From Dipteris shenzhenensis (Eukaryota), in NCBI GenBank assembly GCA_047967505.1, contig CM106538.1: 64,000 nt of DNA. One strand, 5' to 3'. The translations under genes were made by a program, and so were the position numbers. Shown piece by piece: positions 31 to 54,634 of the stretch. The first letter of the stretch is position 1. Each line of letters opens with the position of its first letter. The notes beneath the pieces are model-generated. The model made no database searches. It worked only from the letters and a program-made list of their open reading frames with translations, and was not told where the DNA came from.

Positions 31-2331
31 ATGACACCAGACGAGATGTATATTGGTAGGAAACCAGACATTTCTCATTTGAAAATTTTTGGTTGCATTG
101 CCTATGTCCATGTGCCGGATGAGTTGAGGTCCAAGTTGGATCCAAAGGCTGAGAAGTGCATCTTTATTGGTTATTCTCTGCAGCAGAAAGGGTATAGATG
201 CTATAACCCTTCTATACGTAAGTTCACAGTGAGCAGAGATGTTGTTTTTTATGAGATGAGCAGCTGGTATAAACCAGTAAATGTGATGATTGATGTAGAT
301 GCACAAAATGGTAATGCTGCACAAAATTCACAACAGCAATCACAAAATATCAGTGGACCTACAGTGTCCTCTAGCAGTGGTTCACATACTTCGCCATGGA
401 CAGGTAGATTGAGATCATGAGAATCTCCTCAAAGCAATGCAGATAGTGGTACGCAGGTATCACAAAATGGAAAAGAGAAGGTAGATCAGCCCATGTTTGA
501 TGTGAATGCAGGTCACTCTTATGTGGATGGTGAATCCAGTGGCTCAGAACAGAGCATTCATGATGAGTTGGGTATTCCTTCTGTTGTTACACCTGCAGTA
601 AGGAAGACCAGAGATGTTTTGAGAGCACCTGGAAGTGAGCCTATTTTGCGCAGGTCTACCAGGGTTAGGTATCCTATGGATAGGCTGAAATATGATGGAT
701 TTACAGCCATTCACTATGCCTATATGGTCAAAGTGATACAGGAACCAAAACCCACTTGTTTTGAGCAAGCCATGGGAAATGAAAAATGGGAGAAAGCCAT
801 GGATGAAGAAATGGATGCCTTGGAAGCAAATGCTACATGGGAATTGGTGCCTTTGCCTAAAGATAAGAATGCAATTGGCTGTAAGTGGGTTTATAAGATC
901 AAGCACAATGCAGATGGTTCTGTGAACAGATGCAAGGCAAGATTAGTTGTCAAGGGGTATGCACAGACATACGGCATTGATTATGAAGAAACATTCAGTC
1001 CGGTTGCAAGGATGGCAACTGTAAGAGCAGTCATTGCTATGGCTGCATCAAAGGGATGGTCTTTACATCAGATGGATGTAAAGAATGCCTTCTTGCATGG
1101 TGATTTGCAAGAAGAGGTCTTTATGGAGCAGCCAGCAGGTTATGTTCATGCTATTCATCCTGAGTTTGTTTGCAGGTTGAAGAAATCCTTGTATGGCTTG
1201 AAGCAAGCACCTAGAGCATGGTCTGACAAGATAGGATAGTATCTTGTCACTATTGGCTTTCAGATTTCCAAGGCAGATTTCTCACTCTATGTGAGAAAAA
1301 TAGAGAAAGGTATTATGCTGCTTGTCATCTATGTTGATGATTTGATCATCACAGGTGATAGTGATGAAGATATCCTTCATGTGAAAATGCTATTGAAGCA
1401 GAAGTTTGAGATGAAGGATTTGGGAGAGCTGCGTTATTTCTTGGGCATTGAGGTGATTAGATCACCAAGTGGGATACAGCTCTTGCAGAGGCAGTATGGA
1501 TTGGACATGCTGTCCAAATATGGGATGACAGGCTGTAAGCCTATTTCAGTTCCTTTGGAGCAGAATGTGAAGCTGAGCAAGGATGCAGGTGAGCTTCTAG
1601 AAGAACCTACTATGTACAGACGCATAGTAGGAACTTTGATTTATATGACTATTATCAGGCCAGATTTAAGCTATGCTGTTGGATTGGTAAGTTAGTTTAT
1701 GCAGGCTCCAAGGAAACCGCATTTGGATGCGGCTAGACGCATACTCAGGTATGTGAAGTCCACATTGCAGTATGGACTATTTTATGAGGCTGGGGTTCAG
1801 ATACAGTTGCATGGATACACTGATGCTGATTGGGCTGGTAGTATTTCTGATAGACGATCTACCAGTGGATATGTGTTCTCTTTTGGGAGTGCTGCAGTCA
1901 CTTGGAGCAGCAAGAAACAGCCTACAGTTGCCTTGTCGAGCACAGAGGCTGAGTACAGGGGTGCAGCAATGGCTGCATGTGAGGTAGCTTGGTTGCATAA
2001 GCTACTCTATGATATGCATCAGTCTATAGATGGGCCAGTTGTGATTTATTGTGACAACATGAGTAGCATACACTTGGCAAATAACCCAGTCTATCATGCT
2101 AGAACAAAGCACATTGAGGTGCATTATCACTGTGTGCGGGAGAAGGTTTTACTAGGTCTTATTGATCTAGTTTATGTCAGCATAGAGGATCAGGTAGCTG
2201 ACATATTCACAAAAGCATTGGGCGCAGAGAAGCTGCGTAAGTTCAGAGACCTGCTTGGTGTGCAGGAATTGGTATTGAGCTCGAGGGGGAGTGTTGAGAT
2301 ATCGAGCTCCACTCGCGATATGCCAGGGTGA
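31..2331 (+). pseudogene. copia pol (IN C-term, RT, RNase H) interrupted by in-frame stops
   Basis: One reading frame broken by stops at 418-420, 1237-1239 and 1693-1695. The second copy has GGA, CAG and CAG at these codons. Confidence 0.93.
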
Positions 2332-2643
2332 CCGTTGTGCATTTATGTCACCGACTTGTTAGTTACAGATGCGGTTGGTACACCGCCCACGAATAATAGC
2401 TGGATGACAGCTATCTTTATCTACTCTAGTTCGTGGCTCAGTTAGTATGCTACCTTAGTTAGTTGAGTTCGGTTTGAGACCCACATATAGGGTTCTTCTA
2501 TTTCTTTGTACTTGAGTTCTTTTGGCTTTCACAACTAAGAAGAGGAAAACTGTTTTCAGCCTCCACCTTTGTATGTATTCCCCCATTGTGTATGTGAGAA
2601 AGCCGCAAGTGAGACTCCTTCCCTCTCTCCCACTATCTTCACA
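2292..2643 (+). repeat. 3' LTR of copia family A
   Basis: Starts TGTTGAGAT directly after the PPT and ends CTTCACA. Homologous to the LTRs at 40191-40546 and 45470-45817. Confidence 0.95.
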
Positions 2644-3016
2644 TGGCAGTGGTGCCAATCTGTTATTAGGCCCTAGAAAATGGCATTGAGAAGCCTAAAC
2701 TCACATGTGCATTCTTTTAGCATCAGTGCCCTTCTCTAGAAGGTCAGGTGAGAAAACTCTCATGTGATAACCTTCACATAAGGAGAATTGCATTGGTGCC
2801 ATTCTCTGATTCTCTGCAATCCATGTGATGAATCGAACTTCTGCCATTCTCCTTAACATTATGGAGGATGGCACTAGTGGCATTATCCTCAAACTCTCAC
2901 GGAGGATGGCACTTGTGCCATTTTGAACAAACTCACAATCCATGTGTTCAATGGCATTTGTGACACTCTTCATAACATCATATTATGTTGGAGAATGGCA
3001 CGAATACCATTCTTTA
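2644..3016. repeat. Array of degenerate palindromes, consensus GAGAATGGCACTAGTGCCATTCTC
   Basis: Copies near 2644, 2716, 2783, 2830, 2863, 2901, 2951 and 2991 with unrelated spacers. Two more copies at about 4682 and 4741. Confidence 0.75.
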
Positions 3017-3220
3017 ATATAACCATCTTAACTTTTATATTGTGTATATTTGCTTACTATGTGGGTGTAGTTTTTCATAATGCATATATAAGTTGCTTTG
3101 CCTTGGTTATTTTGTTAATAGAAGTGGCATTGTGGTTGTAATATTTCCTACTACACTTATGATTTTCTATTATACATTTCATTGTGTCCTTGGTTCTTTT
3201 GTTAACAGAACATTGCAAGA

Positions 3221-6200
3221 ATGGCTAGCAAGGGAAAGAGAAAGGTTCGAGAGGTGTCAATTTATGATAGAGTTAGTTCTGGAAGAGGATGGTTTTTGGA
3301 TATATACAATAACAAACTTCAAAAACTCCATAAAGTGCAGTGTTTTGTGAACATCCAAGGAACAACTTTTGAAGATGTTGGACAAGTTAAAGAGATGGAG
3401 GATACCAAGATAGACAACGTTCCTTGTCTCAAAATTCATACATTGGGTGGCAATGTGTATCAATTGGATCCTGCTTGTTTTGATCATGCGAGGATGAATG
3501 CTACTGGGGAGGACACGATGATATCTAGGGGTTGGAATAATGAGCCAAAAAATTATACCAACCAACAGATATTAGAAAGTTTTGATTTGGTAACAAAAGG
3601 GATAAAGCAAGATATAAAAAAGAGTAGAAAAGTTTCGAAAAGAACTAAGAAAAGTGATGTTGAGGGATCAAGCTCTCAAGTGTCTCAAAACACATTGAAA
3701 GAGAAGGCTAGAGAGACCGGTGAGGAGGAAACAACAGGTGAGAAGGAAATAAGGTCAAATGGAAAAACAAGCATTGGGGATAAATTGGATGAAGAAGCTA
3801 AAGATAAAGAGACCAGTTTAGGAGGAAAACAAGGAGGTATGGGAATAGTCACCGATGGAATTGGAAGTGGAGGTGATGCAACGAGGAGTGGTGAGACACA
3901 TATAACAGGACATGGTGAGAAGTCATATGAAGCAACTATCATCCTGTATAAGAAAATCCAGCCAAATGTTGACTTTAAGGCACTACAAAAGAAATTGGAA
4001 AGGAAGGACACAAGTATGACAGGCTTGATGGAGTACGTAGAGTACTTCCCATTTGGTTTGGAGTTTGAGGTGTTGATCCCAGTGATGAATTGCTTTAGAT
4101 CACCAAGCCAATATGTGTACAGGACATTGACCCTCAGCTATGTCAGTGACTTGGTCAAGAGTTTTGCAATGAATGCACGACCTCCTGCAACATGTGCATA
4201 TCTTATGCCTTACCACATAGGCACAAATACTCCGATGTGCAAGGAAGAGATAAAGGTGGAAAAGTTAAAGGATTATAATTATTGGATTCTTGCAGGGCAA
4301 CATTCGATTTATGCTGTAAGGATGTTTATAACTAAAGCACGTGGAGAAGCCTTCAATCAACGAAAAGGTTTCTATACACAGAGGAAGGCGAGAATTGTTG
4401 TCAATGCACTAGTTGAAGCAAGTTGTAAGATATCATCAATGGCCAACATGGAGGCACAGACCGTTTGGAAAAATCATCCATATATCAATATCTTACAACA
4501 CCTAAGGGCTCAGTGGGTTGCATTCAAACGACCAAAGAAACCAGCCCAAGGCCTTGTCAAAGGGCATAAAGATAAACAAAGTTGGGATGTGAGTAATAAA
4601 CTTTGTTTTGTATGCATTTTTTATTTCAAGAATGTTTATGGCTTTGTAAAAGAAATGATAGTAGTGTTAATTCCCTGATGTGAGAATGGCACTAATGCCA
4701 TTCTTCTAGTTACCAAGTCATGCTTTTGACATGGTAATGGGAGAATCGCACTAGTGTCATTATTATCTCTATTACATGATTTGGATTAGAAGAATGTCTA
4801 AGATGATTTTGGTTTTTTTTAATAGAATTTTGTAGGAGTAGCAAGCGTATCGATGGGCGCAAACTTTGCTACCAAGGACACACACATGGTCACATATGAT
4901 GATGACATCTACGAACAATGGATTAGGATTTTGACATTGGTGAAGCAGGGTGATCTTGAGGGTCAAAATCCCACAATAACATATATGAGGTGTCTACTAG
5001 GATTGGAAGACGAAGATGTACGTGCACTTCAAGCAGAGATTGAGTCTAAAGAAATAGTCTTGGTCAAGTCAAGCAAAGACAAGGACTCCATTGAAATGTC
5101 TCAACGGGCAATGGAGATTAAGCATGATAGAGCCCTAAAAGAAGTGCTCATTAAGGAGTTCAACTCACTTCACCCTTCGCCCCAACATCAAACATGGGAT
5201 TCCCTTGCAATTTACTTTAAAATTGATTCAATTGTTTATCAGAGCTTCAAGGGTTCATGTGAGTCATGGGTCAAAGAGAAGCTGCAAGTTGGCCAGTCCA
5301 CACCTGATTTCCCAAAAGCCGCATCAATCTATGTTGATTGGGTGATTAGTTCAATAGAGGGTAACAAGTCTACATCGCAGTCTTGTTTTCCTCGGACAAT
5401 TATTCAAGTGAACATGGAGATGGAGGGGGAGAGCTTTCTAACACGTCACTCCAAGGGACAACTTCCAATTAGCTTGTGTGTGCTTGACACCTCAAAGGGA
5501 TCTACCAAAGGCATGTGTTGGGATAAGGATGCCTTCAAGAAGTTGCTCTGTGGCTTGATGGAGACCGTTGCCACTCCGTCACATTATGTATTGCTATCAT
5601 TTATGAAAATGACAGAGATGGTAAATCTCAAGGAAGCAATGATAGAGGCTCGATTTTGGCATAGAAGGTTTGTGGGTGTTATCCATGAATCAGAGAGTGC
5701 ACAAAAGGGTTTGTCTGAGACCTTCTATTTTTTGTCATTTGTAAGCTCACATGATGGGTTTGATGGATTTGAGAACATGTTAGAAAACACAAGGCCATAC
5801 ACAATAATTGAGGACAATATTCTTGTAGTATGGAACATGAAGTTGTTGTGACGTCTTTACTAATGGATGTGTGGCATTACAAGCATTGTCAAGCAAAAGA
5901 AAAGTGATCTCACTGGTGAAGACATCCCAACAGGGGACAGAGGTCGAGGCTATGTGTGTGGCACATGCATCAAATAATCCCCATAGTAAGATTTGGTCTA
6001 GCATTGAGAGGCCTCTTGAGACACATAGAGCTAATTCACCTATCAATGAAGGAACTAAAGAGGGTGAGCATCACATTGAAGACTTGCGACCTTTAACTGA
6101 AGCAGATCTTGAAGCTATCCCAAAGATTACATTGGAAGATTTGGAGCAAGGTCCAAAGGAATAGGAGAATCTGAAGTATGAGTATTACCAAAAAGCGAGT

Positions 6201-6256
6201 GACACAAATAGAGTGGGTCAAAAAAAGCGGGCTAGTAAAACAATAAAAGATTTATA
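3221..6256 (+). pseudogene. Spliced orphan gene, probably TE-borne and degenerate, with SANTA-like, ParB/Srx-like and methyltransferase-like segments
   Basis: ORF 3221-4588 has a GTGAGT donor at 4589 and a poly-T/TAG acceptor ending at 4825, which joins it in frame to ORF 4853-5851. A frameshifted continuation (5850-6164) reads on past a TAG to 6256. Motifs: YWILAGQHS and DVFTNG..ALQALSSKRKVISL. Confidence 0.6.
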
Positions 6257-6697
6257 AATCGCCTATTTGAGGAGCAAAAAAATATAATTTATTCAAATTT
6301 TCATATGTTTCCTCAATGCTAGAAGGTTAAATATGCATATAACTTTAAAGTTTAAAGCCACTAACACAAATTTCACATCACCCATATTTGAGTTGGCACG
6401 TTTCACTACCAAGTCATCATTAGTATGAAAGACAGACCCTACAATAATTAACTCTCTCTTTCCACCATAGTAATTGAGATCATCAATGCAAACTTCCACA
6501 CCAGTGGGGCATTTCCAAGGACTCCTGGAATGGATTAGTCTACATTCCATGCATATGTAAATGCTTAGTGGAACAAAAAACATGTTTCTTTATCTACTGC
6601 AAAAACATTCCTCCCTAATGATTCACTCTTCCAATGCACTAATCCAACTAGTGCAATAAATTAACCACAAATTCATATTTTGGTGGATGAAATTTTA

Positions 6698-7025
6698 CTA
6701 GATGGTGCAAAAAGGCATGCCATTTGATTTTATATGTAACCTGAGCCCATTTGGACTTGTAAATCAAAGGATGCAGGGATGTGAAAATGTTATTTTTTGG
6801 GCCAGAATTGGGAGGGCATCAACATGCTCCCAAATTTGGCCCAAAAATGACAATTTTCACATTCTTGTATCTTTGCAAGGTCAAAATTTGGTTTTTTGGC
6901 CCAAAAAATGAGTTTTGGACATCCCTGCATATTTTGATTCTCAAATCAAAATGGCATAGTGTTACATATTAAATAAAATGGCAAGACATGATTTAGATGA
7001 ATATCATGCCCTTTTGCACCATCTA
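6698..7025. mobile_element. Fold-back / MITE-like long imperfect inverted repeat
   Basis: TAGATGGTGCAAAAAGGCATG (6699-6719) pairs with CATGCCCTTTTGCACCATCTA (7005-7025). Inner arms also pair (ATATGTAAC/GTTACATAT, ATGCAGGGATGT/ACATCCCTGCAT). Confidence 0.7.
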
Positions 7026-7564
7026 AAAAAATTGTGTGCATTAGATTATTGATTGTATGAATTTTTGGCCGATATGTTGCACCAAATTTAAAGCAAGTTT
7101 TTGCATTAATAGGGTGTGAGAAGACACTGTTTATTTTGGCAAATAAAATAGCAAAATTTTTAACATCCTCTACCTTTTGATTATGCTCGGGGGTTCACTT
7201 TTATAAACCCATAAAGCATGTGCGAGCAAGTACATGTTAAAAATTACCCCTATTCTTGCATTTTTACATTTTTGCATGTAATTGGATAAACCCTTGTACA
7301 TGTTTACATTGTGACACCCCTTCATAAATCTCCATATAACACTTATTTCCTTAATTTTTGACTTATCAATGTACAAAATCATTTTTACGGATACTTTTGG
7401 ACTAGTTTTTGGATAAAATTTAAGCTCTTCAAAGCACAGATGAAAACATAAAAACAAGCAATTTTTTAGATATTTTTGAAGGAGATGAAATCAAAATTAT
7501 AAAATTTAACGTGACACAGATAAGTTCCACCAAAAGATAAGATTCAGCACTTGTAAACTCTCGT

Positions 7565-9679: not shown

Positions 9680-11670
9680 TATTAAGGAGACTAATCTTTT
9701 GCTAACTCCACAGTTGGTCTAGATCAAGATCAAAGGGGATTATATCATCCTTAGAGGAGAGAACTCTTAATTAGTCAATCGAAGCCATGCCCAAAAATTC
9801 CCAAATAGTTCCTACTTGAAGTCAGTCCCTACACTCACATGCAATTTCACATCATCATATTTCCTAAAACCCAACCACCTTCAGTTTAGTGAGAAAACTT
9901 CAAAATTTTCAAAGGCATTGGTTGATTGTTCAGTGGGTAGATTGTACATCGTTTGATTTTTGCACTCACATGCCATCATTATAAAGCCTATCAGCAGGTA
10001 TTTTCTTACTTTGTGCACACTATTTGAGCCTTGTAAAGCGTCTTGAATATTACCGGCATCATTTGCCACACAAGACTTTTATCAAATTGGATATATATTA
10101 CAATTATATCTTCACTGATAATTCAGATTGCACTTGATATAGACAATGTTTTGCAGTTGATTCAAACAATGTTTTTCACAAGCACTTTGAGTACTATTTA
10201 TTGCATCATGTCTACCACTAGCAACCTCGATTTGGATGCATCTGCTAATTTAGGCGATTCTAATTATGGCACATGGAAATACCAAATGGAGACCATTATT
10301 GTATGTCAAGACAAATGGGACTATCTCAATGGGTCTACACCTCGACCATCCAATGAACCAGCACTTGCTCCTGCCATTGCCATTTGATTAAAAAAATGTA
10401 CAAGATGTCATGCTTGGATTGCTCAACATGGTGAAGCATCCAAAGAAGCATGGGATATGTTTGCAGCTCTTTACGAGTCTAAGAACACATCCACAATCCT
10501 CACACAGAGAAACTAAATCAACCAGAAATTCTACAATAACAATGAAATTGGTCATGCTTACATACTTGGAATCAAGGATTACAACAATTAACATATAGCA
10601 GTAGGAGAGACTATGAATTCCATGAAAATGGTTCACTAGGAGAGGGATACGAGAATCTAGTCTAGGGTATTTCCATTCAATGGTAAATTTCAACAGTGGA
10701 AGAGCTGCAATCAGTGCTACTTGGGGAAGAACTCAGGACTCAATCCATTCAAGCACGAAAAAGTCATTCCAATGATCAAGCATTCACAGGTTCAGATAGA
10801 GGTAATTTAGGCAGAGGTAGATCATCTCAAAGGAGTGGTCAGTAGCATCAAAGTCATCAGTAGTAGTATCAGCACCCGCATCCGCAACACCATCAACATC
10901 AGTTTCCAAGAGGAATTCATTCCAACAGAGGAGGATTTCAAGGACGAGGGAATGCATCCACCAATGTGTCAAACATTTAGTGAAACTACTATCATAAGTT
11001 TGGACACAACAAAAGAGATTGTTGCAAGAAGCAGTACAAGCAAGGAAGTCAATCTAGTAGCAATCAAGGAAATATTCCATGGAAGAGTAAATCATCATAG
11101 TGTACATTCAAGTCACTGTCATTATGCTAATGAACCACAGAATATGTTTCTTGCAAGTGAGGATATGTAGAAGACTGGTACGATGTATCTCAACATTGAT
11201 TTCAATTCAAAAGGAGAATGCAATTATCAAGTTGATTAAGTAGATCAAGATCCTTGGTACATCGATAGCAGCACGTCATCTCATATGACAAAGCATCAGG
11301 AATGGTTCACAGAAATGAAACCATTAGAAGGATAGAAGAACATTATCTACATTGGATATAACACACCAAATCTAGTTAAGGGAAAGGCATTGTCCTTATG
11401 AACGATTTGACTCGTACAAAAGGATTGGTAAAAGATGTACTCTATGTTTCAAAGCTCATCAAGGACCTCTTGTCAATCTAGAGAGTCATCTTTGATGGAG
11501 ATGAATGCACCATCAAAGACGAATCCAAAGGATATCAGCTAGTAGGAAAAGCATTCAAGGAAGGACGCTTATTCATAATGCTAGCTTCAATAGTAGATTT
11601 GCATGCTTTGTTAGCTCAGCAGCAACTGATGCCACTTTCCATAGAGATATGGACATGTCAATTTCAAAAG
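9680..11670 (+). mobile_element. Old truncated copia family B fragment (leader, gag, protease)
   Basis: MSTTSNLDLDASANLGDSNYGTWKY matches MSTSNLNLEASAKLDNSNYGTWKY of the element at 54290-61546. DPWYIDS protease motif near 11250 and RYGHVNFK near 11645. Many stops and frameshifts. Confidence 0.88.
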
Positions 11671-14521
11671 CTTGATGAAGTTCAGAAATCAAAATATGGC
11701 AATTGGAATTCCTAAGCTTTAGATTCTTGGAAAAGTAAATTTTGAAAATCTCATAACTTTCACATCCAATGTCCAAATATAGTCATTTAGCCACTCAAAT
11801 CGAATGAAAAATACCTTTTGAGAACATCTACAAGGCATAAGTTATAAATTATATTAATTAGAAGATTGAATTCTACATTGAACTTTTAAGAATATAAAAA
11901 TAGTCATAATTTATATTTAGTCTTTGTAGATTTTTCATTTTTTGGTGAAATAATCACTAATTCTCATTGATGAAGCCTCTGATGAGTGATAAGAAAACTC
12001 TATGGAGAGGAGATATGGAAATCTGCACTCATTGACTAGCTGCATGCAACAATCTAGTAGTGTCAACAACATATTATCTCACTCTAGACTAGATTTGCAT
12101 GCAGCTCGAGTGGCAACCCCTCCACAACAAGAACCCGGTCTCATCCACGAGAGGCTACTGGAAGCATCATCCTATGCCTCCACCCTTTGCTTCACCTCAC
12201 GCATAGTCCATGACACATTCCACTACTTTTTGCACACCATCTCCACCGCAGTCCTCTCCCACAACATCCTTTTTTACAACACCCTCACATAGCATGACAT
12301 CGAAGAGATTTTTTGCCACACCACCACAAATGCCCATCCAATCATTGCCATGGCATACTTTCATGAGTATATGGTCCTAGATGTCAATATGGACATCCTT
12401 ACACTCTTTTACCACCCCATTGTATATAATTTTATGATGTGGACTAGAGTGTTACAGGATTCCATAGACTTCACCATGGCTACACCTCCTCTTGAACCAC
12501 CTAAGTCACCAGCCTTAGAAGACCAACCTTGCACTCTGGATATCCTCTACAGAAGTCTAGAATGGATGCAAGTGTATGGTCGGAGTGATGCTAAATATAT
12601 TTTCCATGGCCTGTTCTGGGCTGGTAGTGAAAGGTATCCTCCTACAAGCATTATAGTGCTATACAATAATATACTCCAAGCCCTACAGAATATGATTCAA
12701 ACTGGCATAGGTCAAATTGATGATTCCCATGTGGCATAGCCAATAGATGTACAGCCCGAAAACATGGATTCGGCTTTGAACCTTTTTAACTTCACCCCAA
12801 AACCACGCTGCAATCACAGCCCAACAAAGCTCTTAGCATAGGCCCCAACTCCACTATCATGGGCATACACACAAGCATAGGCCCCACCTCACATCCCTCC
12901 ACATCACAGCATGGCACAACGGACACATAATAGTAGCCTCTCAAATAGGAGGGACCACAAGACATGCCATAACACTCACTAATATAAAATCCTCAAACCC
13001 ATGGTCTTCTCTGACATGGAAGGGCCCTCCTATAAAGAAGGCCAAGAGGAGGTTGAACAATACCTCACGAAGAAGAATACCAATAGCTGTAAGACACCAT
13101 TCCCAACCACAACACATGATATAATGCCATAACATCATTCCGCACGGTCGAGCATGTGGCATATGTTAACCGATGGAAAGCAAGCTGTAGAGCTTCCACC
13201 TCACATGCAAAGATATCACAAAGGTGCAAGATCTCACGAATTGATCCAACACACCTTTTGTAAGTGACAGCATGAAAATTATAGGCACACATGGGGTGAA
13301 TACAATAGACTAGACTACAACCAAGTCCCCCACACAGACGCTGATGTAGGCCTACGGTGACAATGGCGGATCCCATTTTTGAAGCACATAGCATTTTGGA
13401 GAACATACTAATGTGCTGGAATAGAGCAAAGGATCGACCCCACTTACATGCCACTATGCCACCGAAGGAGCTGGCCAAATTTTGAATGGCTGCAGGTAGC
13501 AAATCCCAATGTAGCCTACAACTTCCCGAGATTTGAATTTCCAAAAGTTGTCTCTTCCTTAGCTCTAGTAGCTCATATGGAGGAGTTTAATAGTACCTTT
13601 GCCTCAGTCCTTGATCCTGCAGTCATAGCTACAATGCATTTCTTCCAACTCTTGATCCTTTTGCTATGGGACCTACCAACACTCGCACTGCCGGCCAAAG
13701 AGCATCATCAACAGCTCCGTATAGAAATAGTTTTCAATTTTAATGAGGGTCCCTTATTCCCTCAAGTCATGTGCCTTTATGTACATGTCTATAACCTTCA
13801 TGGTCACCACATTCAGGCTTTCCAAGATAGTGCGAGACACACTTTTGGAAGCCGCTCCATACATTTTGCCGCATCTCCCATAGAACCTTTGATTGGTACT
13901 ACATCATGAACAATGCCCTCGAGATCAACATCATGCACCGGAGACAATCCACGGATGGATTGTGAGCAAGAATGGGGACATGTTAACTACTACCATGGTT
14001 AACAGTTCATGTACTGTGATAACCAAGATGAGATGTAGGAGAGAGCATGAGGATTAGCATATGACATTCACCTTGGAGCCAAATGGGCCCAAGTCATCAT
14101 TAAATGAGAATGAGAGAGGTACATGAGAATACAAGGGCTAGCCCTCCCTTCAAAAGGTTGAATGTATGTAAGGCCAAACGTTTGACTTTGGTCTTCATTA
14201 TGTACTTGCAAGTTTTGGAATAGAAGCTCTCTCTTTCCTTTCATTCTCTTGCATTGAGTCTTATTTCTAAGTTGTCATGTGATTGCCACTCTCGCCCTTG
14301 CTTTCATCCCTTTCTTCCTTTCCCTCTCCCCTTCCCCCTCTCTCTGTGCCCCTCATGGAATCACTCGCACACAATATGGTAGATGCTTGGGTGACACAAG
14401 CATGAGGCTCGCATATACAAAGCTCCCAAAAGGAGTTGTTTGGTAGTAGAGGCTTCGATGGCATTCTTCCAAGATCCCCACGACACGTGAGTCACTACCC
14501 AAACTACATAGGGCCTCATGT

Positions 14522-21958: not shown

Positions 21959-22311
21959 GATGGGAATTGTCTTCCATAGGGAGTCTTATGGAGCAAGACT
22001 CGCGATCTCATAGTGGCTAGTAGACCAATATGAGAGTGCACGAGTAGGCCTTTAGGCCATAGACATCTGTCAAGATGGGTTCTCCTATCACTCCTCTATG
22101 GAATCATGGCAGCAATGACAAACGATGAGCAAACAATCTTTTGTAGACCATTGGCCCATGCTCAACAGAGATTTTTTTTTTTTTTTTTTGCCGAAAAAAC
22201 AGTGCTAATTATATTACTTCAAGAACAAGATACAAAAGGTCAGCTTGTAGCTGACGGGCTGCGTTCACAAATCGGACACAGTCCTAAAAGGTAACACAAT
22301 AAATCACTCTC

Positions 22312-25300
22312 TCACGTCGGGATAAGGCGAGTGTGAATGAACAGCCATCGGGGTGGTGAGTAGCGCCACCGAAGGCCCTGCGAAGTCTGCTCGAAGAAGA
22401 GGCCCTGAGTGTTCCAAGTCCGGAGGAAGCGTCTCCGCTTCTCTTGACCGGACCGGGAATCTCCCTGAATCTGGTCCCACTGGCCTCTGTGGGTATGAAT
22501 AATCTCGCACCAAATATCAGTCATGATTTGGGCAGTCGATAAGGAGGTGCCACCAAGGATCTGCGCGCAACGCGAGGTCCAAATGTGCCACCCTGCTATG
22601 CTGCTAATAATCTCCCAGACTGGCTGCCTCTCCTGAACTCCTGTATCCGCCTCTGCTAGGTGCTGCGGGATACCCTCGAGCAGCCCCCATGTACCCTGCA
22701 TGATAAGGAAAGTGGGGTCCTGCTGGCATGCCTCGAATAAGTGATGTAGACCAGGTGCGGTGCTGCACTAACAGAACGCACCCCACGTGATCAAGCTGGT
22801 GCTGCGCGAGTGAGAATCCCGAAAGTCCACCTCCACACTTCCTGGGCGCGAGTGCAGCTCCACAGGCAGTGTTTTGGTGACTCCTCAACCTCATGGCAGA
22901 TCTGACAGCGTCCGTCCTGGCCTATCTGTCTCAACCAGCTCCCCACCGGAAGACCTTTGTGGGCGAGAAGCCACAGGAAGTAGGAGATCTTCCGCGGCCG
23001 CCAGCTCTCCCACAAGGCCTTCCAGAAGGCTTGCAAAAAGAATCTGGAAATACCCTGTGCATACCAACTGGGCCGCTGGGTGGGGGGGCGGCTCTGCATC
23101 CTCCCAAGAACTCGCCTGCCCAAAGTCGTGCTGTAGGCAAAGAAGGAGGTCGGCCCCTGTCCTGTCACAACCTCTGGCCAGCTCCACTCTCCTGGGTCCC
23201 AATCAAGCTCTGACAAGGCCCGCCCCTTCCAGAGCCAGAGTCGCCAAAGCTGCAGCTGATCCTGCTCAATGCTAGGATCGGTACGCCAGACCTTCCCCAA
23301 AAGGCCTACGATCCGAACCCTCTGCCATGGGAGTAGGGGGTCGATGAGTGCATCCTCTCTCCTGAGTCGTCCATCCCCCATAACCGCGAAGAAAGAAATA
23401 GAGGAGTCGTCCATACGTCCTGTGACCACCAGTGGGATGCCACAGGGGGTGAACTGTCCCAGCCAACGGTCGTCACCAGGCATGAGGATCTGAGGCTCAG
23501 GTGGAACCAACCAATCAGCTGGGACTGCGCCGTCGATCTCCGTGTGTCTCGCCTGGGCTCCACGTGCACCTCCAGCTGCGTCTGCGAGATCAGCCGTCTC
23601 CAAATGTCTGTACGTGTCCCTCCAAACTCGAAGGGACCGCCGGGCTGGCCCCCTCATCCAACCATCCCACCTGATATGTGATCTCTCCCCCAACTGAAGG
23701 CCCTCGGCATCTCTGACCTGATCATTCCAGATAAGCGGCTGGCGATCGATCTCCTCCTGATAGCGGGGAGGGGACTAAATGAGACTGACGCCTCCAAACC
23801 ATGAGGAGGCTACGAACGAGTGGGGAACGGGGCTGAGTAAGCGGGGCGGAAGTGAAGATCCACCTGAGGGACGGGAGCCACTCTCCACCTCGGCACGGGA
23901 CACAAGAACCGACCCCCTGCTGAAGTAGCATCTTCCACGTCTGCCCCCCCGGGGTCAAACCGCGGATGACTAACTTGCCTAACAAGGCCTGACTCTGCAG
24001 CTCTGGATCGATGACTCCCAGGCCTCCCTCAGCCTACGGAAGAATAACTGTCTGCCAAGCAACCCTGGCTCTGGTATCTCTGAGGCCATCCTCCCCGGAC
24101 CAAAGGAAGTTCCGAACCAGCCTCCTAAGCTGTGCCACACTAGATCTCGAGAAACACCAACAGGAAGCCACATACCAAGCCGTGGCAAGGAGGACTTGGT
24201 TGACTACCAAGGCACGACCTGCAAGGGAAAGCTTAGCAGTGCTCCAGAAAGCGGATGGAATCTAGCATCGGGAGAAACTGCTGAGCTGGTGTGATGTCCA
24301 GGCCGACCTGAAAACCCAGGTATCTAGCTGTCTGTCCCCATGGGATCCACCTGAAACCCAAAAACCTCCCCCACTGAGAACGCGCCCCGGGGTCTGTGAG
24401 GAAACCAACTGATTTGTTCCAGTTGATTTTCGCACCAGCAGCCGAACAGAAGACCTCCAGGGCCATCCTCACCCTCTCCAGCATCAACTCATCGTCCTGG
24501 ACATACAGGGCTGTGTCATCCGCGTACTCCGAGTCCAAGAGCTCCGTGTCCTCCCGGAGGGGAAGGCGAACACCCCTGATCCCTGTAGACCTCGCCCGGA
24601 GGTAGTAAGTCATAGCCTTGGCGAAGAAGAGAAACAGGTAAGCGGCAAGGGGGCAGCCCTGACGCACTGATCTCTCCAAGCTAAAACGCTCACCCATCCT
24701 GCCTCCAATGATGACTCTGCTAGAGGCTGTCCTGTACAAAGCTGAAATACCCTGAATCCAACCTGCTGGGAAACCTAGCCGCTCCAGAGTCCCCTCCAGA
24801 AAGGACCAGTCCACCCGATCGTAGGCCTTCTCAAAGTCGAGAAGTAGGATGGCAAGGTGTGATCCGCTGTGCTGAGCCCACTCCGCCGCCTCTGAAAAGG
24901 TGAAGACATTATCCAGGATACTGCGATCCTGGACAAAGCCTGTCTGAGTGTCATGAATGAGGTCTGGAAGTAGAGGCCGAACTCTGGCGCTGATCATCTT
25001 GGCTAGGATTTTGTAGGCAGTGGTAAGGAGAGTGATCGGGCGCCACTGACGGATCTCCTGTCTATCTCCTCCCTTCGAGATGAGGCAAATCAGTCCCGAG
25101 GAGAGGCTCTCTTGCATATAACCGCTGCTGAAAATCCTCTGAAGAGCTGTTAAGAGGGGCTGATGGATCTGGTCTCAGAAGGAGGTGAAGAATGCCCGGG
25201 ATAGCCCATCCTCACCTGGGCACTTCTGTCCATCGATGGCCATCAAGGCCTCTAGCATCTCATCCGTGGTAAACGGTGCCAACAGCGTCACTTGCATGCT

Positions 25301-26618
25301 AGGCTGGACCAAGGAAGGAGTGTGTCTCCACACCTCCTCACGGGCACGACGAGTGCGAGGAGAGCAAGCGGCTCCTGCTGGAAAAGGGTCCTGTAGAAGT
25401 CGGTGGCCAATCCCAAGACCTCTCCCGGATCCGTGACGATGTGTCCCTCCGCTATCCTGAGACTCCGAAGCTGATCACCTGCAGCTCTCTGGCCATGTGT
25501 CCTGAAGAACTCCCTGCACATCCGGTCACCCTTCCGAGCCCAGAAGGAGAGAGAGGCGTGATAGGAAAACTCTGAGCCCGGGGATGCCTGCTGGAGCCGC
25601 TGAATGGAGGCGAGGTCCCTCCGAAGGGCTCTCTCTCTACCCCACCACTCCTGTCGAACCTGTAGGGCTGCGAGCTGTGGCAGATCTGGCTGGACTCCTG
25701 CAAAGCCTGTGCCACCGAATCAACCAAATCCGCGCACTCGCCCCAGTCTCTATCCCAAAGACTGCAAATACTGTTGCGCACGTCCTCCCTCGAGAAAATG
25801 GAGTCGGGAATCCGGCATGAGCGGGGGGGAAGGGCCTGAGCTGCCGAATCTAATGATAAGAGCACCGGCGCATGGTCGGAGAGTGTCGTCCCTGGAACTA
25901 TACCGGCCTGACCGCCTCTGCTGATGGCCCAATCACTAACATAAAATCTATCCAGCCTCTCCAGGAGTCTGCCTCCTTCCCTGCGGAAACCCCACGAGAA
26001 GTCCAAGCTCCCGTGCCAACGCCGGAAGGACGGGTCTCGCCAACAGTCCCTTCCTCCTGTCGCAAAGATAAAAGAGTCCCAAGCGGACTGCTCTGCCTGA
26101 GACATACCTGTAAACTCCGGTCCTCTGCCCTGCTGGTCCTCCAAGGTCTCCAAATTGTTGAAGTCACCTCCAACAATCCAAGAATCCATGTCTGGGAGAA
26201 TCCCTGTAAGTGTCCTCCAGAAGGTGGCTCTACAACGGAGATCTGTGGGAGCATAAATGTTGAGAATTCCAACTCTAGAGCCCTCCAATTCCAAGCCTAC
26301 CCAAAGGGCACGACCTGGAATCAACGTGCCATGACCGAAAACTCCCTGGGCTAGCTGCTCTCCCACGGAAGTACAGACACCACCACTCCTCCCCAGTGCG
26401 CCGATCGAGGGCTCCCAATAAGTGTGAGAGCGACCAGGGAGGATCTTCCCGCATCTACGGGAGTGAGCCGCCGAAAGCTTGTGTTCCTGGAGCAGAAGTA
26501 CATCCAAACGTCCTATCACTGCTGGCTGAAGTTCCTGTCTCAAAATGAGCTTCCTGGGACCACGGGTGCCAGAAGAGTGAAACCCGTTCACATTCCAGGA
26601 TACGAGGTGTAGGCTCAT
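22312..26618 (-). pseudogene. LINE ORF2: APE endonuclease, reverse transcriptase and zf-RVT, frameshifted
   Basis: SWNVNG, LQEHK, GGDFN, RLDRF and SDH (EN). WRPITLL, LDFEKAYD, RQGCPL and YADD (RT). FLWLL.H..L...C..C....E...H.LW.C (zinc finger). The protein is split over several frames. Confidence 0.93.
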
Positions 26619-28656
26619 GGTGAGGACTGGGAGGCAGCGAACAACTGTCTGCTCGCGGTGTCGAGGTCGAAGAAGAAGCTGACATTTCGGAGTAGAGGCG
26701 CTGGCGCTTATGGGAAGGTTTGGAGGGGGAGGCGGGGTCGTCCTGCCCGTCCTTCAACACCTTCAGCAAAGGCGAGAGGCCTTTGGTACCATGAACGAAG
26801 GCTTTCTCGAGCCAGCTCGAGATCTCTGAGGTGGACATCCCGTAGAAGGCACGGAGTTTTTGAGGCATCCAAGCTCTGACATCTTGGGGGAGGGGCCAAG
26901 ACAGGGGCGGCCTGAGGATCACAATCAGTCTGAATCGTTTGGCGGCGCAGCGCCACCGCAGGCGCACGTCACCCTCGGACCACTGAGTCTCGAGAAGCTG
27001 CCCACCGGACGGGCCTATCCAGGAGCAAATCTGAGCATGCGTCTACTCCCTGAGAGCCTCCCAGACCGAGTCGTCTGTCCAGGTTTCGGTGCCGTCGCTG
27101 AGGAACGTGAAAGCAAAGCTAGGGCCATCCCTAGGGGCCAAGGCGGCTATCTTCCCATCCGCCCCTTTGCGGAGCAGGAAGATACTGATGTCGAGGCAAG
27201 CAGGGAAGGTCCCGAGGTCGGCCACATCCAAGTAGTCCCAGGGGCCAGATCTGTAAAAGTCGCGGGGGAGCTCTCTCTCCTGAAGCTGAGGCCCGTCAGA
27301 GTCTGCCACTGAGGGGCTAGCGGACGGAGAAGCCTGCTCCGGTGGTGGTGTAGACTCCGGGTGTCCTGCCAGCGGAGGGGGAGGGGGAGGGGGAGGAGGC
27401 TGGGGAATAGGCAGCTCAGACTCCTCAGGGGCGGCTAGCGGAGGAGAAGAAGGAGGGGGAGCGGGAACTGCCCTCGGCTGAGGAACCGTCGGAGCAGCTA
27501 GCTCTGCGGGAGAACTGAAAGAGGCGGGGGGGGGAGGGATGGGGCTGCAACTGGAACTGGGGCTGAGAAGGAGGGGGAGAAGACTGAGGAGGACGAGGGG
27601 GCTGAAGCTGCGGGTCGGGAGACAAGGGGTGCAGTTGGGGGATGGGCTGGGGCTGGATGGGAAGAGGCTGGGGAGAGGAAGAGAGGAGGACCTGAGGCTG
27701 TGGAGGGCCGGCTACCGTCGAAGAAGATGCTCTCCCATGTCCCTGGGGCGGCTGCCTGTCGGGTCTCTGAGGTGCAGCTACAGGCGGGGTAACCTCTGCC
27801 TCCTTGCCTTTATCAGAAATCTTCTTGTTCTTTCCTCTTTTCCTTCTAACCTCAGTCCAGCCGCTAGCTATCTCTGGTCCGGCTGCCTCTGCTCCTCCTG
27901 GCATGGCTGCCCGGAGGGGGGAGGAGGGGGCAGAGAGGGGGGAGGCGGGGGAGGCCGAGAAGAGCTGGCGAAACGTGGGCAAGCAGCAGCCAGGTGTCCA
28001 AAGCCGTGACACCTCAGACACTGTCCTGGCTGTCCGGTGACTACCATGCTCTGGGTGATGCTGCCGGCACCTGTCACGATCTCGATCACTGCCGGGAGAG
28101 TCGCAGGATCTGCCACAGCCACACGGACTCGGGGGGCTCCTGCCGTAGTCACCGCATCGGCGAAAGTATCGTGCATAACCCAGCCGAAGTGGGAACCCAG
28201 GTCCCTAACAATCGGCCGCAGCTCAGCAGCAAGACCAGGAAAAACTAGCGTCACTGGATGGCGAGGTATACGGAACCGGGCATCAAAATCTGCTGCGCTG
28301 AATCCACGGTACCACGGGACTATCATGATAATCTTTCCATCCACTGACGTGGGGGAGCCAGCAATCAGGTTGCTCGCAGCTTTCGCACTAGAGAGTTTAA
28401 GCCAGAAGATGCCCCTTCCCATAAGGGCCACCTCCTCAATATGGCCGTCCTCTAGCATGAGAGTGGACTGGAGCCAGTCCCTGATGGCTGATCTGGAGGG
28501 GGAATGTCCAATGACTCTGCCATAGACAGAGGTAAGAGCAAAGTCATTGGCAACCTCCTGAACCCGAGATGATTGCTGCTCTGTCAGGATGACGCGGTAG
28601 GCGTCTGGAGAGGGAGGGACCGTCTGGGCCTCCGGTTCCGGGAAGGGAGCCGCCAT
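26619..28656 (-). pseudogene. LINE ORF1 (DUF4283/RRM-like domain plus CCHC knuckle), frameshifted downstream
   Basis: MAAPFPEP start at 28656, MGRGIFWLKL..VPW and CLRCHGFGHLAAAC. A Pro/Ser-rich tail continues in other frames. Confidence 0.8.
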
Positions 28657-33263: not shown

Positions 33264-33878
33264 TCAGAATACTGGGCAACCTTTAACTATGATACCTGGG
33301 GCAGTAGGGCATGTGGCAAGTGGACAATGATCAATATCTGTGCCCCACCACTCTAATTTTTTCTTTGTCAATCCAAGTGAGAAATAAAGTAGTACTCCCA
33401 TAAATGCTGTACCAGCATCAAGAGCTGCAGAAAGTATGTAATTGTAACGCTGCCACCATCCTTTCCTGAACTGAAAAATGTAGAAGTTGAAAAAAGCGCC
33501 TACTATCAACCAAGTGAAAATGTTCACAGGAGTTGCAGGGGGCATGCTTGAAAAGCCTCCAAGCAACACTGGAATATTAATTAGGGCTATCCATCCCACT
33601 CTTGGGAAGACTTTGCTAAGAATCCAGATTGGAACAGGAAGAAGAGCCCCAAGCAAAAAAAACCAGGTGAGGTTTTTATAGATACCAGAAGATCCAAAGA
33701 GGTACCTTGGACCTACAAGGCCCCACAATACAGAGGCATCATACGCAACTCGATCCTTCGGGCACGTCCAGGGACTCGCAGGAGGAAGAGTATCAATATC
33801 ACAAATGGAATCAATTGATGTAAGCATCCACCATGCGATTGATATGTTGACTGTACCAGCAATCAATGTGCCCACAAG
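33264..33878 (-). CDS. OPT3: OPT3 coding exon 6
   Basis: LVGTLIAG...KGCPVF followed by TGA. Confidence 0.93.
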   Translation of the reverse strand, partial: LVGTLIAGTVNISIAWWMLTSIDSICDIDTLPPASPWTCPKDRVAYDASVLWGLVGPRYLFGSSGIYKNLTWFFLLGALLPVPIWILSKVFPRVGWIALINIPVLLGGFSSMPPATPVNIFTWLIVGAFFNFYIFQFRKGWWQRYNYILSAALDAGTAFMGVLLYFSLGLTKKKLEWWGTDIDHCPLATCPTAPGIIVKGCPVF

Positions 33879-36793: not shown

Positions 36794-37718
36794 TCTTATA
36801 AACAGGCGCCCGTTAGCACTACCTTCTGGTTTTGAGGGCCCAAAAAATCTTCAAAACAAAAATAGAAACCAAACATCCCATAAACATCTAACATTGTGGC
36901 GAAAGATTCAAAATTAGACACCTCTCTCAACTCTGTACTTCACACGGTCCATTCCATCGCGATACCAATACTTGGAAGCGATTGAAAATTGAGAAAAAGT
37001 GTCTAGAAGAAAACCTGGAAACGAAATGAATTCCAAACGTTGGAGCTATGGATATCTACACAGATGATTACACAAAGCCAACAAGCTAAACATTCAAATT
37101 TTACCTTAAATTCAAAGCTGCAGCAAAGTGAAGCTCACAATGGGGCTGTCTGCATAAACCAGAATTCCGTGTCGACTAATCGAGTCTCGCAGGAAGATGC
37201 TGGTCGCAAAGTCTGAAACAGACTTCATCCAATAGCGCAAGCACCCAAATTTGATGACTATCAACACGGGCGAGCAGGCTATTTATGAGCTCTTGGACCG
37301 GTACGACCAGGAATTGGACAAAGGGAGGAATGAGGGAAGGCGAGGCGGGTACGGCAATTAGTGGGGAGGTAGTGGAATCCAGAAGCCAACGATGGGAGCT
37401 GATTGCAACAAGGGGGAGGGGGAGAGAGGGGCAAGGAAGCGGTGGAGCACGCGCGGGCAAGGAGGGAGCACGCGCTGCCAAAAGCCATAGCCATCGCCCG
37501 AGTTGGTCGAGTTTGGTCGAGGCGGCAGTGGCAGTTAGACACTGTCACTCCTCACTTGAGTTTCAAAGGCAAATTAGCCATCGCCACCATAGCCGGAGCT
37601 CGAGCTTCGAGCTCGAGTTCGAGTTCAAAGCCAAAGCCATAGCAATCGCCATCGCCATAGCTGGAGCTTCGAGCTTCCACTCTCAGTAGACACTGTCAGT
37701 CCTCCTCTTCAGTTCCCC

Positions 37719-54546: not shown

Positions 54547-54634
54547 CCTTCCCTCAAGATCAACATCATGAAGTAGGCCTTCCCTCAAGATGATGATTCT
54601 GGGGAATCGAAGAAGGACTGAGCATTACATTCCA

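Follow-up and report, generated by a model that had tools for sequence, protein, structure and literature searches.

The locus

What does a fern gene do if its product joins a domain resembling ParB to a domain resembling a DNA methyltransferase? The question is raised by a locus in a 64-kb stretch of DNA, here called the window, for which an initial annotation had proposed a spliced gene of this kind. The strings quoted in that annotation and the spliced open reading frame are all present, and the parts of the gene are laid out as follows.

3221..4588, + strand: exon 1, 456 codons, defined by an open reading frame with an ATG and by alignment with P0001-3, P0014, P0047, P0062 and L121-L128; it comprises a conserved N-terminal domain (~3221-3600), a K/E/G-rich low-complexity linker (~3600-3990) and a ParB/DndB-like domain (~4010-4588)
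4112..4306, + strand: core motifs of the ParB/DndB-like domain, YVYR..L....V from 4112 and YWILAGQHS at 4280-4306, with the strand KARIVVN just 3′ of YWILAGQHS in exon 1
4589..4825, + strand: phase-0 GT-AG intron, GT at 4589-4590 and AG at 4824-4825
4826..5824, + strand: exon 2 up to the first lesion, defined by tblastn with P0004, by the fold of P0004 and by the motif table; a helical region (~4853-5375) is followed by the start of a methyltransferase-like fold
5465-5497, + strand: motif IV-like strand PISLCVL-D-TSK, in which PISLCVLD is 5465-5488
5850..6164, + strand: motif I-like strand, helix and strand (DVFTNG...ALSSKRKVISLVK) and then the tail, aligned to 18 homologs; the stop codon of this segment is at 6162-6164

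The last codon of exon 1 is complete, the frame carries on into exon 2 at 4826, and the spliced product from the ATG at 3221, with exon 2 taken to 5848, is 797 aa with zero stops. The frame of the ORF at 3206-4678 holds YVYRTLTLSYVSDLVKSF, YWILAGQHSIYA, ARIVV and KISSMAN. When residues are numbered from the ATG at 3221, YVYR is 298-301 (4112-4123) and YWILAGQHS is 354-362 (4280-4306). Among 1.84 billion representatives, 58 relatives of exon 2 score E ≤ 1e-3, and 8 of the 58 reach E ≤ 1e-30; exon 1 finds 3, with E from 1e-35 to 1e-40. The spliced protein is colinear over the junction with P0062, which is an annotated fern gene model, and also with P0029, an ORF that runs without a break on a contig of 2116 nt. 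Because both exons have relatives and the colinearity runs across the junction, the locus is more than a chance reading frame. In run X3, which we guess to be RNA, contigs lie over exonic parts only, with none spanning 4589-4825, so that these reads neither show the splice junction nor contradict it.

This intron is genuine and sits at a conserved position. The same site, after W-D/K and with GTN as the next codon, is found in 6 genomic loci (L121 and L123-L127) and in P0001-3, spanning three protein clades; L122 is disrupted there and L128 stops short. A reading of L122-L124 as intron-less was rejected, as their ORFs break off directly behind the W-D codon and the tblastn alignments had run across short introns. 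A recent gain of the intron by the proposed prokaryote-like module is unlikely, since the site is common to genomic relatives from three protein clades.

The gene family

The relatives that carry a species name are all from ferns, 9 from Adiantum nelumboides and 1 from Ceratopteris richardii (10 accessions; 9/20 clusters looked up). Adiantum is rich in paralogs, fragments and chimeric models, and one of its accessions is fused to an RT/RNase H fragment. Both the ParB-like and the methyltransferase-like half belong to a single polypeptide in P0062, P0047, P0014 and the spliced product of the window.

Some family members carry, or precede, an NIF/FCP1-like domain. NIF (PF03031) scores above the gathering cutoff in P0008, P0010, P0047 and P0062, scores below it in P0009 (18.8 bits vs 21.8), and is also found on L126, while a tblastn search of the window gave neither an NIF domain nor a remnant of one. 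The DxDxT of NIF/FCP1-like domains reads DLNG or SLCG in this family.

The C-terminal half and its lost tetrad

The C-terminal half, as modelled on homolog P0004, is strongly supported to have the fold of beta-class N4/N6 DNA methyltransferases. Residues 1-330 of P0004 correspond to window 4853-5830 by tblastn (E = 2e-63), and the fold is predicted for this homolog, which is 33% identical to the window sequence, while the window lacks ~32 residues of the domain that P0004 has. The AF2 model, made on a 37-row alignment, has a pLDDT of 84.2 and a pTM of 0.77. Foldseek with this model against the PDB gives 42 matches at E ≤ 1e-3, N6A/N4C enzymes at E = 1.4e-6 to 1e-4 among them, and the matches listed as far as rank 36 are DNA methyltransferases of the beta-class or Type III Mod kind. 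VIA with P0004 residues 175-412 finds N6A/N4C DNA methyltransferases for all of the best 20 entries, with Z = 12.2-14.9 over 173-219 aligned residues, and MT-A70 enzymes rank after these at Z ~10. Structural matches of P0004 include CcrM, M1.HpyAVI, TTHA0409, RsrI, PvuII, MboIIA and rotifer N4CMT, and the named matches in BFVD are N4/N6 methylases together with one 494-aa "ParB/Sulfiredoxin" phage protein. The order of the predicted fold is Rossmann-like with the motif IV strand ahead of the motif I strand; PISLCVLD falls on the strand that carries motif IV and DVF..G on the strand that carries motif I, and both are kept in homologs. The beta-class assignment made from the window letters is thus upheld on the homolog, and the DVF..G motif it pointed to is indeed conserved, as the window segment from 5850 aligns with V[IL]D[VIA][FY]SxG...R..I.L of 18 homologs.

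The point of interest is whether such a fold could still methylate DNA. An active, or recently active, N6A/N4C ParB-methyltransferase, comparable to those of phages and to what has been suggested for accessory proteins of algal transposons, and with DPPY lost in the window copy only, would suit the fold and strand order of the beta-class enzymes, the Asp that ends the motif IV-like strand, and the loop of the form [FY]-small-x-G that follows the motif I-like strand. We nevertheless hold that alternative to be very improbable: PP[YFW] after the conserved Asp is found in 0/24 family members in the motif table, with D-T-S-K in the window; the acidic residue that ends the next strand after motif I is not conserved, being E, C, T, K or Q; and PF01555 has zero HMM matches at the gathering score in the window exons and the 18 homologs. 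Around motif I, [DE]x[FY]xxG is kept in 18/20 rows covering that stretch, and the loop is [FY]-[SGCAT]-x-G in 18/20, reduced from FxGxG. The absence of DPPY had been taken as a sign of decay in this copy; since none of the 24 members carries the tetrad, its loss is a family trait instead. Judging from the motifs, we infer that the methyltransferase-like domain of the family no longer methylates DNA.

The putative ParB/DndB-like domain of exon 1

Membership of the C-terminal domain of exon 1 in the ParB/DndB (DGQHR-type) superfamily is plausible from its sequence. Across 7 sequences R301, Y354, W355, I356, G359 and H361 are invariant (YWI..G.H), and the GQH motif named in the initial annotation is conserved among homologs as a YWIxxGQHS-type motif in which G and H are invariant; the position of the Arg in GxxR/DGQHR is S in 13/14 sequences and F in 1/14. 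A search of 14 sequences gave no significant Pfam, NCBIfam or PDB sequence match for this part, and the sub-threshold matches are to TIGR03187 DGQHR (E = 0.091) and phrog_1033 ParB-like (E = 0.072), each in 1/7 members.

The alignment by hhalign to a Pfam-verified DndB set scores 80.7% over 65 columns spanning both motifs, and it brings both the G.H motif and the R..L...V helix that precedes it into line with their DndB counterparts. Reversed controls score ≤1.4% and the positive control of DndB vs ParB-like scores 98%. With the motif columns deleted the probability falls to 0.2-0.4%, the DndB templates having been chosen by the same motif, and the upstream-only and downstream-only halves score ≤0.4%. 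Against a small ParB-like set, 16 columns are aligned at 51-55%. Profile searches of PDB sequences (A3, A4, A5) gave chance-level rows only, namely proteasome alpha-7 at E = 0.04, SCP1 at E = 1.3 via the NIF part, and an N-methyltransferase at E = 0.43. Word-indexed homolog searches gave 0/712 candidates for exon 2 at near lengths and 0/208 for the ParB-like part in longer proteins. AF2 of the ParB-like part, with a 4-row alignment only, has a pLDDT of 31.5 and the model was unused; a homodimer prediction for the domain scored 0.00 without controls or a supplied alignment and weighs neither way. The ParB/Srx fold of the initial annotation thus stands as plausible on the sub-threshold hits and the hhalign score.

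The domain might instead not be ParB-like, having a separate eukaryotic fold, perhaps that of the Starship auxiliary family DUF3723, and the DGQH string would then be convergent. ESM features rank DUF3723 clusters first among named clusters, at 0.95 for the window part (176 shared features) and 0.89 for P0001, with the ParB_N cluster at rank 30 (0.91), and no ParB-clan HMM match is of significance. Even so we consider this doubtful, as the weak matches to DGQHR and ParB-like families come from two independent libraries, hhalign registers the helix together with the G.H motif, and DUF3723 may itself be ParB-related, although a look for literature joining DUF3723 and ParB found none. DUF3723 is an unexplained auxiliary gene of fungal Starships, and the link, if true, would offer an initial way in to a Starship gene whose function is unexplained.

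Decay of the window copy

The 3′ end of the gene is broken in the window at these places.

5824..5849, + strand: two frame-breaking lesions, ~79 nt missing after 5824 and 1 nt after 5848
5827-5847: remnant between the lesions, reading SMEHEVV in a third frame
6153, no strand assigned: likely 3′ truncation, from the identical loose ends of related copies in runs X1 and X2

A frame change before DVFTNG had been described in the initial annotation and is seen here, with DVFTNGCVALQALSSKRKVISL beginning at 5850 in a frame that differs from that of spliced exon 2. Contigs from X1 and X2, 95-99% identical to the window, carry the extra 79 nt and 1 nt, so the frame change comes from two deletions relative to near-identical relatives, and no full-length protein can come from the window copy. 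At 40 places an A/T of the window stands against a G/C of X1, and at 8 places the reverse holds; differences from X1 in exon 1 fall on codon positions 1:2:3 as 12:11:16 (39 among the differences listed, with 57 further ones outside this tally). The decay is near-neutral and of the deamination type. Downstream of 6153 we find zero NIF-like remnants and zero further palindromes. An annotation should list the window copy as an ordinary pseudogene that has decayed.

Palindromes beside the gene

The 5′ region and the intron contain repeated short palindromes.

2784..3013, no strand assigned: array of 5 copies of a 22-bp palindrome, AGAATGGCA-N4-TGCCATTCT, 229-437 nt 5′ of the ATG; sites at ≤3 mismatches are at 2784, 2829, 2865, 2903 and 2992, with 2948 a sixth at 4 mismatches
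4683-4704 and 4742-4763: intron palindromes, the first perfect

The spacing in the array is 36-89 nt, or 36-45 nt if 2948 is included. In the whole 64-kb window the palindrome is found 7 times at ≤3 mismatches, all in the 5′ array or the intron, and mononucleotide shuffles give a mean of 0.8 at ≤4 mismatches. Palindromes of 22-24 bp are present in the window and in 6/8 related loci, with 8 in L126, 6 in L127, 5 in L122, 4 each in L121 and L128, and 2 in L125, against 0 in shuffles; L123 has a direct 20-nt motif in place of a palindrome. The motifs are of three types with zero cross-matches between types, and the types track protein clades having 100/100 support, amid flanks that are otherwise not alignable. 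Between L127 and L128 the change is symmetric in both arms, AGGCTC...GAGCCT vs ATGCTC...GAGCAT. Common descent by itself would be enough to make palindrome types follow protein clades. The palindromes look like candidate sites for the family's own protein.

The best explanation, which we favor by a modest degree, is that the family protein would be a sequence-specific DNA binder and not a methylase, one that would read the 22-24-bp palindromes in its own 5′ region and intron in the way that ParB reads parS. In this scheme the inactive methyltransferase fold would be there to bind DNA or SAM, and the protein would regulate or mark its own repeated, possibly transposon-borne unit, in line with what has been suggested for accessory proteins of algal giant transposons that pair ParB with a methyltransferase or an oxygenase. 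An intact family protein consists of the N-terminal domain, the basic low-complexity linker, the probable ParB/DndB-like domain, the helical region and the beta-class methyltransferase fold, and the window copy is a decayed, truncated member of a multi-copy gene family whose named members are all from ferns. More tentatively, the family could be a fern analogue of ParB-parS, a diversifying protein of a ParB-like domain plus a dead methyltransferase in which each clade would recognise a 22-24-bp palindrome of its own, arrayed in promoter region and introns, and so mark or regulate a repeated, possibly transposon-borne unit, the binding domain having maybe the DUF3723 fold. Such an analogue might act by anti-silencing, or by recruitment of RNA polymerase II via the NIF-like pseudo-phosphatase.

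Surroundings of the gene

One repeat element abuts the locus on its 5′ side and lies outside the gene.

2292..2646, + strand: copia 3′ LTR, found by self-blastn

This LTR matches both LTRs (40191-40549 and 45470-45817) of a second copia copy at 94-96% and marks an interruption of the upstream sequence. A reading of the gene as an extra ORF of the upstream copia was rejected because the copia 3′ LTR ends at 2646. Among the 34 downstream ORFs located at 6.1-22 kb there are 0 of any transposase family, 33 being without a Pfam family and the remaining one being copia gag; the upstream sequence is cut by copia, and the search takes in little ground. A terminal inverted repeat or inverted pair enclosing the gene, and a target-site duplication, were looked for within reach of the window copy and none was found, and the 7.5-kb locus L126 likewise has no transposase or terminal repeats near it. 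The proposal that the gene travels in a plant mobile element is not supported, as no transposase, TIR or TSD was found around it. The family is possibly linked to transposons, and since nothing of that sort is within reach, the link is one of analogy and copy number only.

These surroundings bear on the alternative of a host family, domesticated or specific to the fern lineage, with no present tie to mobile elements, in which the palindromes would be cis-regulatory elements of another factor or structural repeats. The failure to find a transposase or terminal repeats near the window copy and on L126 would suit a host gene, as would an intron position kept over three deep clades and the full-length annotated models in two fern genomes. 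That alternative seems unlikely to us, given the paralogs, fragments and chimeras that fill one fern (9 Adiantum accessions), the near-neutral, deamination-type decay and truncation of the window copy, and the clade-specific repeat arrays amid diverged flanks, which better fit a cognate binder. With a DNA binder as the preferred reading, the several clades supply candidate protein-site pairs by which the idea of self-binding or self-marking becomes testable.

Comparison with known systems

The bacterial and phage beta-class methyltransferases, such as CcrM, M.RsrI, M.PvuII, M1.HpyAVI and M.MboIIA, share the predicted fold and strand order with the fern family, at VIA Z 12-15 over roughly 190-200 residues. 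The fern family, in turn, lacks DPPY, has a degenerate FxGxG loop, contains introns and carries additional domains, N-terminal and helical. With ParB-parS and DndB, the family shares a hydrophobic strand leading into D/S/A-G-Q-H, the upstream R..L...V helix and short palindromes near the gene, but the ferns have Ser or Phe where GxxR/DGQHR has its Arg. A plant parallel is found in the VANC anti-silencing proteins of Arabidopsis VANDAL transposons, which are transposon-encoded DNA binders with arrayed short targets that change with the protein lineage; the protein fold is unrelated, and the analogy is one of logic only.

The closest architecture is algal. In its account of accessory genes, PMC12477816 describes the Sola1-1_Ec32 element of Ectocarpus as encoding a 1104-aa accessory protein with a ParB-like domain and an N4C/N6A methyltransferase, and reports similar ParB-methyltransferase proteins in transposons of green and red algae. 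The fern protein would share the algal domain order, with its probable ParB-like domain ahead of an amino-methyltransferase fold of prokaryote type; both are eukaryotic, spliced and multi-copy, and a self-binding role is proposed for both. The fern family differs in that neither domain is visible to Pfam, the catalytic tetrad is lost throughout, no transposase partner is seen, palindrome arrays are documented, and some members have NIF-like pseudo-phosphatases. As far as the published accounts go, ParB-methyltransferase accessory proteins of eukaryotic transposons had been noted only in algae and with no mechanism; what is probably the same architecture is now found in ferns, in a version that was hidden from family libraries and whose methyltransferase is, by its motifs, evidently a methyltransferase no more.

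Red algal Plavaka elements provide the other comparison. For these elements, bioRxiv 10.1101/2025.02.11.637652 gives PAG2 as an N6A methylase with SET, and places tandem inverted repeats alongside PAG3 (ParB plus a 2OG oxygenase) in Bostrychia. Like PAG2 and PAG3, the fern gene would join a ParB-like domain to a nucleic-acid-modifying fold and has inverted-repeat tandem arrays beside it. In the fern the partner would be a dead methyltransferase, where Plavaka has an oxygenase and a defined element with its transposase.

Gene structure and fern relatives

The 64-kb window is retroelement-rich, plant-like sequence, and all of the strings that the initial annotation quoted for the gene are found in it, with DVFTNGCVALQALSSKRKVISL starting at 5850 in a frame different from that of exon 2. 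The splicing and translation that it proposed as a check gives a stop-free product of 797 aa from the following parts.

3221: ATG, gene start
3221-4588: exon 1, ending at a codon boundary
4589-4825: GT-AG intron, phase 0
4826 to the stop at 5849-5851: exon 2

Neither exon has a match among Pfam or PDB sequences. For exon 1, 239 candidates included 3 relatives that are about 40% identical, and the ORFs of all three end just past GWD|VS, the window intron start. A word-indexed homolog search gave no relative of exon 2; an exhaustive search of 1.84 billion representatives gave 58 at E ≤ 1e-3, including 39 at E ≤ 1e-10 and 8 at E ≤ 1e-30. Named clusters were found for 9 of the 20 proteins looked up, and all 10 named accessions are fern hypothetical proteins (Adiantum nelumboides, 9; Ceratopteris richardii, 1). 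The spliced window protein is colinear across the exon junction with the homolog P0062, a 1125-aa model in which the full architecture is seen, and with P0029, which a 2116-nt contig encodes as one continuous ORF.

An exon 1 alignment scan of metagenome contigs added 8 loci, L121 to L128. In 6 of these (L121, L123-L127) W-D or W-K closes the exon 1 ORF, and the codon that comes directly after is GTN; the L122 ORF is disrupted near the intron site and that of L128 ends before it. Because the 6 ORFs end in this way, the phase-0 intron site is common to three protein clades, and the intron described initially as a gain is an old one.

The frame change reported before DVF is the result of two deletions. 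Contigs from public runs, 95-99% identical to the window, have 79 extra letters after 5824 and one extra T after 5848, and with both restored the frame is continuous from exon 2 through SMEHEVV (5827-5847) to DVFTNG, matching the homologs' ..ME..L..[IL]D[VI]F. There are 40 places where the window has A/T against G/C in the run X1, and 8 in the reverse direction; of the listed differences, the 39 in exon 1 are spread over codon positions 1, 2 and 3 as 12:11:16, with 57 further differences outside that listing. This bias and this spread are the pattern of an unconstrained copy that has decayed by deamination. In two runs the near-identical contigs lose their match to the window at 6153, downstream of which the window contains neither a NIF-like remnant nor a further palindrome.

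The methyltransferase half

In an alignment of 37 sequences, the out-of-frame DVFTNG... of the window aligns with the conserved block V[IL]D[VIA][FY]SxG...R..I.L, ahead of which the window lacks about 32-40 residues that homologs have. For the fold we turn to P0004, an intact homolog 468 aa long that aligns to the window with 33% identity at E = 2e-63; its AF2 model has pLDDT 84.2 and pTM 0.77. Foldseek gives it 42 PDB matches at E ≤ 1e-3, headed by CcrM, M1.HpyAVI, TTHA0409, rotifer N4CMT, RsrI, PvuII, M.BceJIV and MboIIA. By VIA, the best 20 entries for residues 175-412 have Z = 12.2-14.9 and are all N6A/N4C DNA methyltransferases, with MT-A70-type enzymes in a lower tier at Z of about 10. 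A viral structure library concurs on the fold, its matches including a 494-aa phage "ParB/Sulfiredoxin" protein.

On this fold PISLCVLD is located on the strand ending in motif IV and DVF..G on the strand ending in motif I. The Asp of the motif IV strand is kept across the family and followed by [STNAL][TSAI]x, with PP[YFW] in 0 of 24 family sequences. The glycine loop reads [FY]-small-x-G, and no conserved acidic residue is found after the following strand in the family sequences compared. Given the structure matches of the P0004 model and these motifs, the C-terminal half has the fold of a beta-class DNA methyltransferase, as first named, from which the catalytic tetrad is absent family-wide. 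DPPY is indeed missing from the window copy, as a feature of the family and not as the private decay that had been thought possible, and we infer from the motifs that the domain is a pseudo-enzyme.

The ParB-like half

The C-terminal domain of exon 1 has the invariants Y-W-I-x-x-G-x-H (YWILAGQHS in the window), preceded by a helix Y.YR..L....V..L and followed by a strand KARIVVN. The defining Arg of GxxR/DGQHR is replaced by Ser, or by Phe in one member. Profile libraries gave no significant match to the domain among 14 sequences, and a profile search of PDB sequences gave none. Weak matches do fall on the right families. One of 7 family members hits TIGR03187 DGQHR sub-threshold (E = 0.091), and one of 7 hits phrog_1033 "ParB-like partition protein" (E = 0.072).

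With hhalign, the templates were VIDGQHR-bearing proteins from bacterial genomes, 20 of them confirmed as DndB by Pfam. Seven family rows align to DndB over the motif only (64%, 21 columns), and 14 rows reach 80.7% over 65 columns, including the upstream helix. Reversed controls score ≤1.4%, and DndB against a ParB-like set scores 98%. Without the motif columns the score is 0.2-0.4%, with the register of the best local alignment unchanged. As the templates were chosen by motif, the match is suggestive and not proof. AF2 on a 4-row alignment of this part reached pLDDT 31.5.

By ESM features the ParB_N cluster ranks 30 (0.91), below eukaryotic clusters that include DUF3723 (PF12520). DUF3723 is among the nearest named clusters, at 0.95 with 176 shared features for window residues 260-456 (3998-4588) and at 0.89 for the homolog P0001. 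DUF3723 is a fungal Starship auxiliary gene of unknown function; a literature search found no paper connecting it with ParB. The ParB/Srx assignment made initially is only probable, with the hhalign match to DndB in its favor and the lack of a significant profile match against it, and we lean modestly toward membership of the ParB/DndB superfamily.

Palindrome arrays and the NIF-like module

A 22-bp palindrome, AGAATGGCA-N4-TGCCATTCT, has 7 matches in the 64-kb window at ≤3 mismatches, 5 upstream of the ATG (2784-3013) and 2 in the intron (4683-4763), and none elsewhere. Related loci have a like layout with differing sequences.

Palindromes at related loci
L121: CCCTATGGCC-N4-GGCCATAGGG; 4 upstream
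L122: CCCTATGGCC-N4-GGCCATAGGG; 5 upstream
L125: AGGCTC[GA]AACTTAAGTT[CT]GAGCCT; 2 intronic
L126: AGGCTC[GA]AACTTAAGTT[CT]GAGCCT; 8, being 5 upstream and 3 between the methyltransferase-like and NIF-like ORFs
L127: AGGCTC[GA]AACTTAAGTT[CT]GAGCCT; 6, being 5 upstream and 1 intronic
L128: ATGCTC...GAGCAT variant; 4 upstream

Mononucleotide shuffles of the related loci gave 0 matches, and there are no cross-matches among the three palindrome types. L123, whose clade is the one nearest to P0001, carries in place of a palindrome a direct 20-nt motif, with 5 copies on the upstream side and 8 on the downstream side, all on a single strand, in arrays flanking the gene (84-397 and 3499-4241).

Palindrome type tracks protein clade with 100/100 support, an agreement that descent alone could explain. 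The loci are unalignable beyond their coding parts, yet the palindromes are kept in several copies, and between L127 and L128 both arms change symmetrically. ParB proteins recognize short palindromes. In red-algal Plavaka, tandem inverted repeats are reported to adjoin a ParB-domain accessory gene (bioRxiv 10.1101/2025.02.11.637652). On these grounds we propose the palindromes as candidate cognate sites of the ParB-like protein, which would bind those of its own locus.

Within or after some family members comes a NIF/FCP1-like domain (PF03031, with E values as low as 6e-17); it follows the methyltransferase-like part in four homologs (P0008, P0010, P0047, P0062), and the window has none. L126 encodes it in an ORF of its own, 395 codons long (5924-7108), with the three palindromes ahead of it. 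Since the DxDxT of the domain reads DLNG or SLCG, it is apparently a second dead enzyme fold of the same gene unit.

Neighboring elements and comparison with known transposons

The surroundings of the gene contain the following.

1-2646: copia-type element, cut by the window start, about 95% identical to the copy at 40191-45817
6650-7085: nested inverted repeat, MITE-like, 500 nt 3' of the gene; arms 6718-6807 / 6894-6983 (79%), outer arms 6670-6724 / 7000-7054
9776-11736 (+): fragment 75-78% identical to the element at 54285-61547
22300-29500 (-): GC-rich block (56-61% versus about 40% around) with long ORFs, by eye LINE-like (endonuclease, reverse transcriptase), along with a proline-rich ORF
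33264-36850 (-): three long ORFs, putative membrane transporter exons, oligopeptide-transporter-like by eye
40191-45817: complete copia copy; 356-nt LTRs 96% identical (40191-40546 / 45470-45817), 669-aa pol ORF
46320-49095: putative Ty3/gypsy-type gag and protease ORFs
54285-61547 (-): other copia-type element; 263-nt LTRs 99.6% identical, long open gag and pol ORFs of 613 and 871 aa

The last looks like a young insertion, and the putative transporter may be the sole host gene in the window. The gypsy-like ORFs begin directly after the 3' LTR of the second copia copy, which suggests nested insertions. The gene is not an additional ORF of the upstream copia element, because the 3' LTR of that element terminates at 2646.

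The initial observation is real and its naming largely correct; this analysis adds the fern family, its palindrome arrays, which differ by clade, and the NIF-like module. Its further claim, that the gene travels in a plant mobile element, is unproven: no transposase, TIR or TSD was found around the gene, whose 5' side is interrupted by the copia element. We put the chance that the family is transposon-borne at about even, on the grounds of copy number, the degenerate and chimeric copies among its Adiantum members, the decay of the window copy and published precedent. Transposons of Ectocarpus, green algae and red algae are described as encoding ParB-methyltransferase accessory proteins (PMC12477816; bioRxiv 10.1101/2025.02.11.637652), and ParB-fused methylases are reported from chlorophytes and chytrids (PMC4738411).
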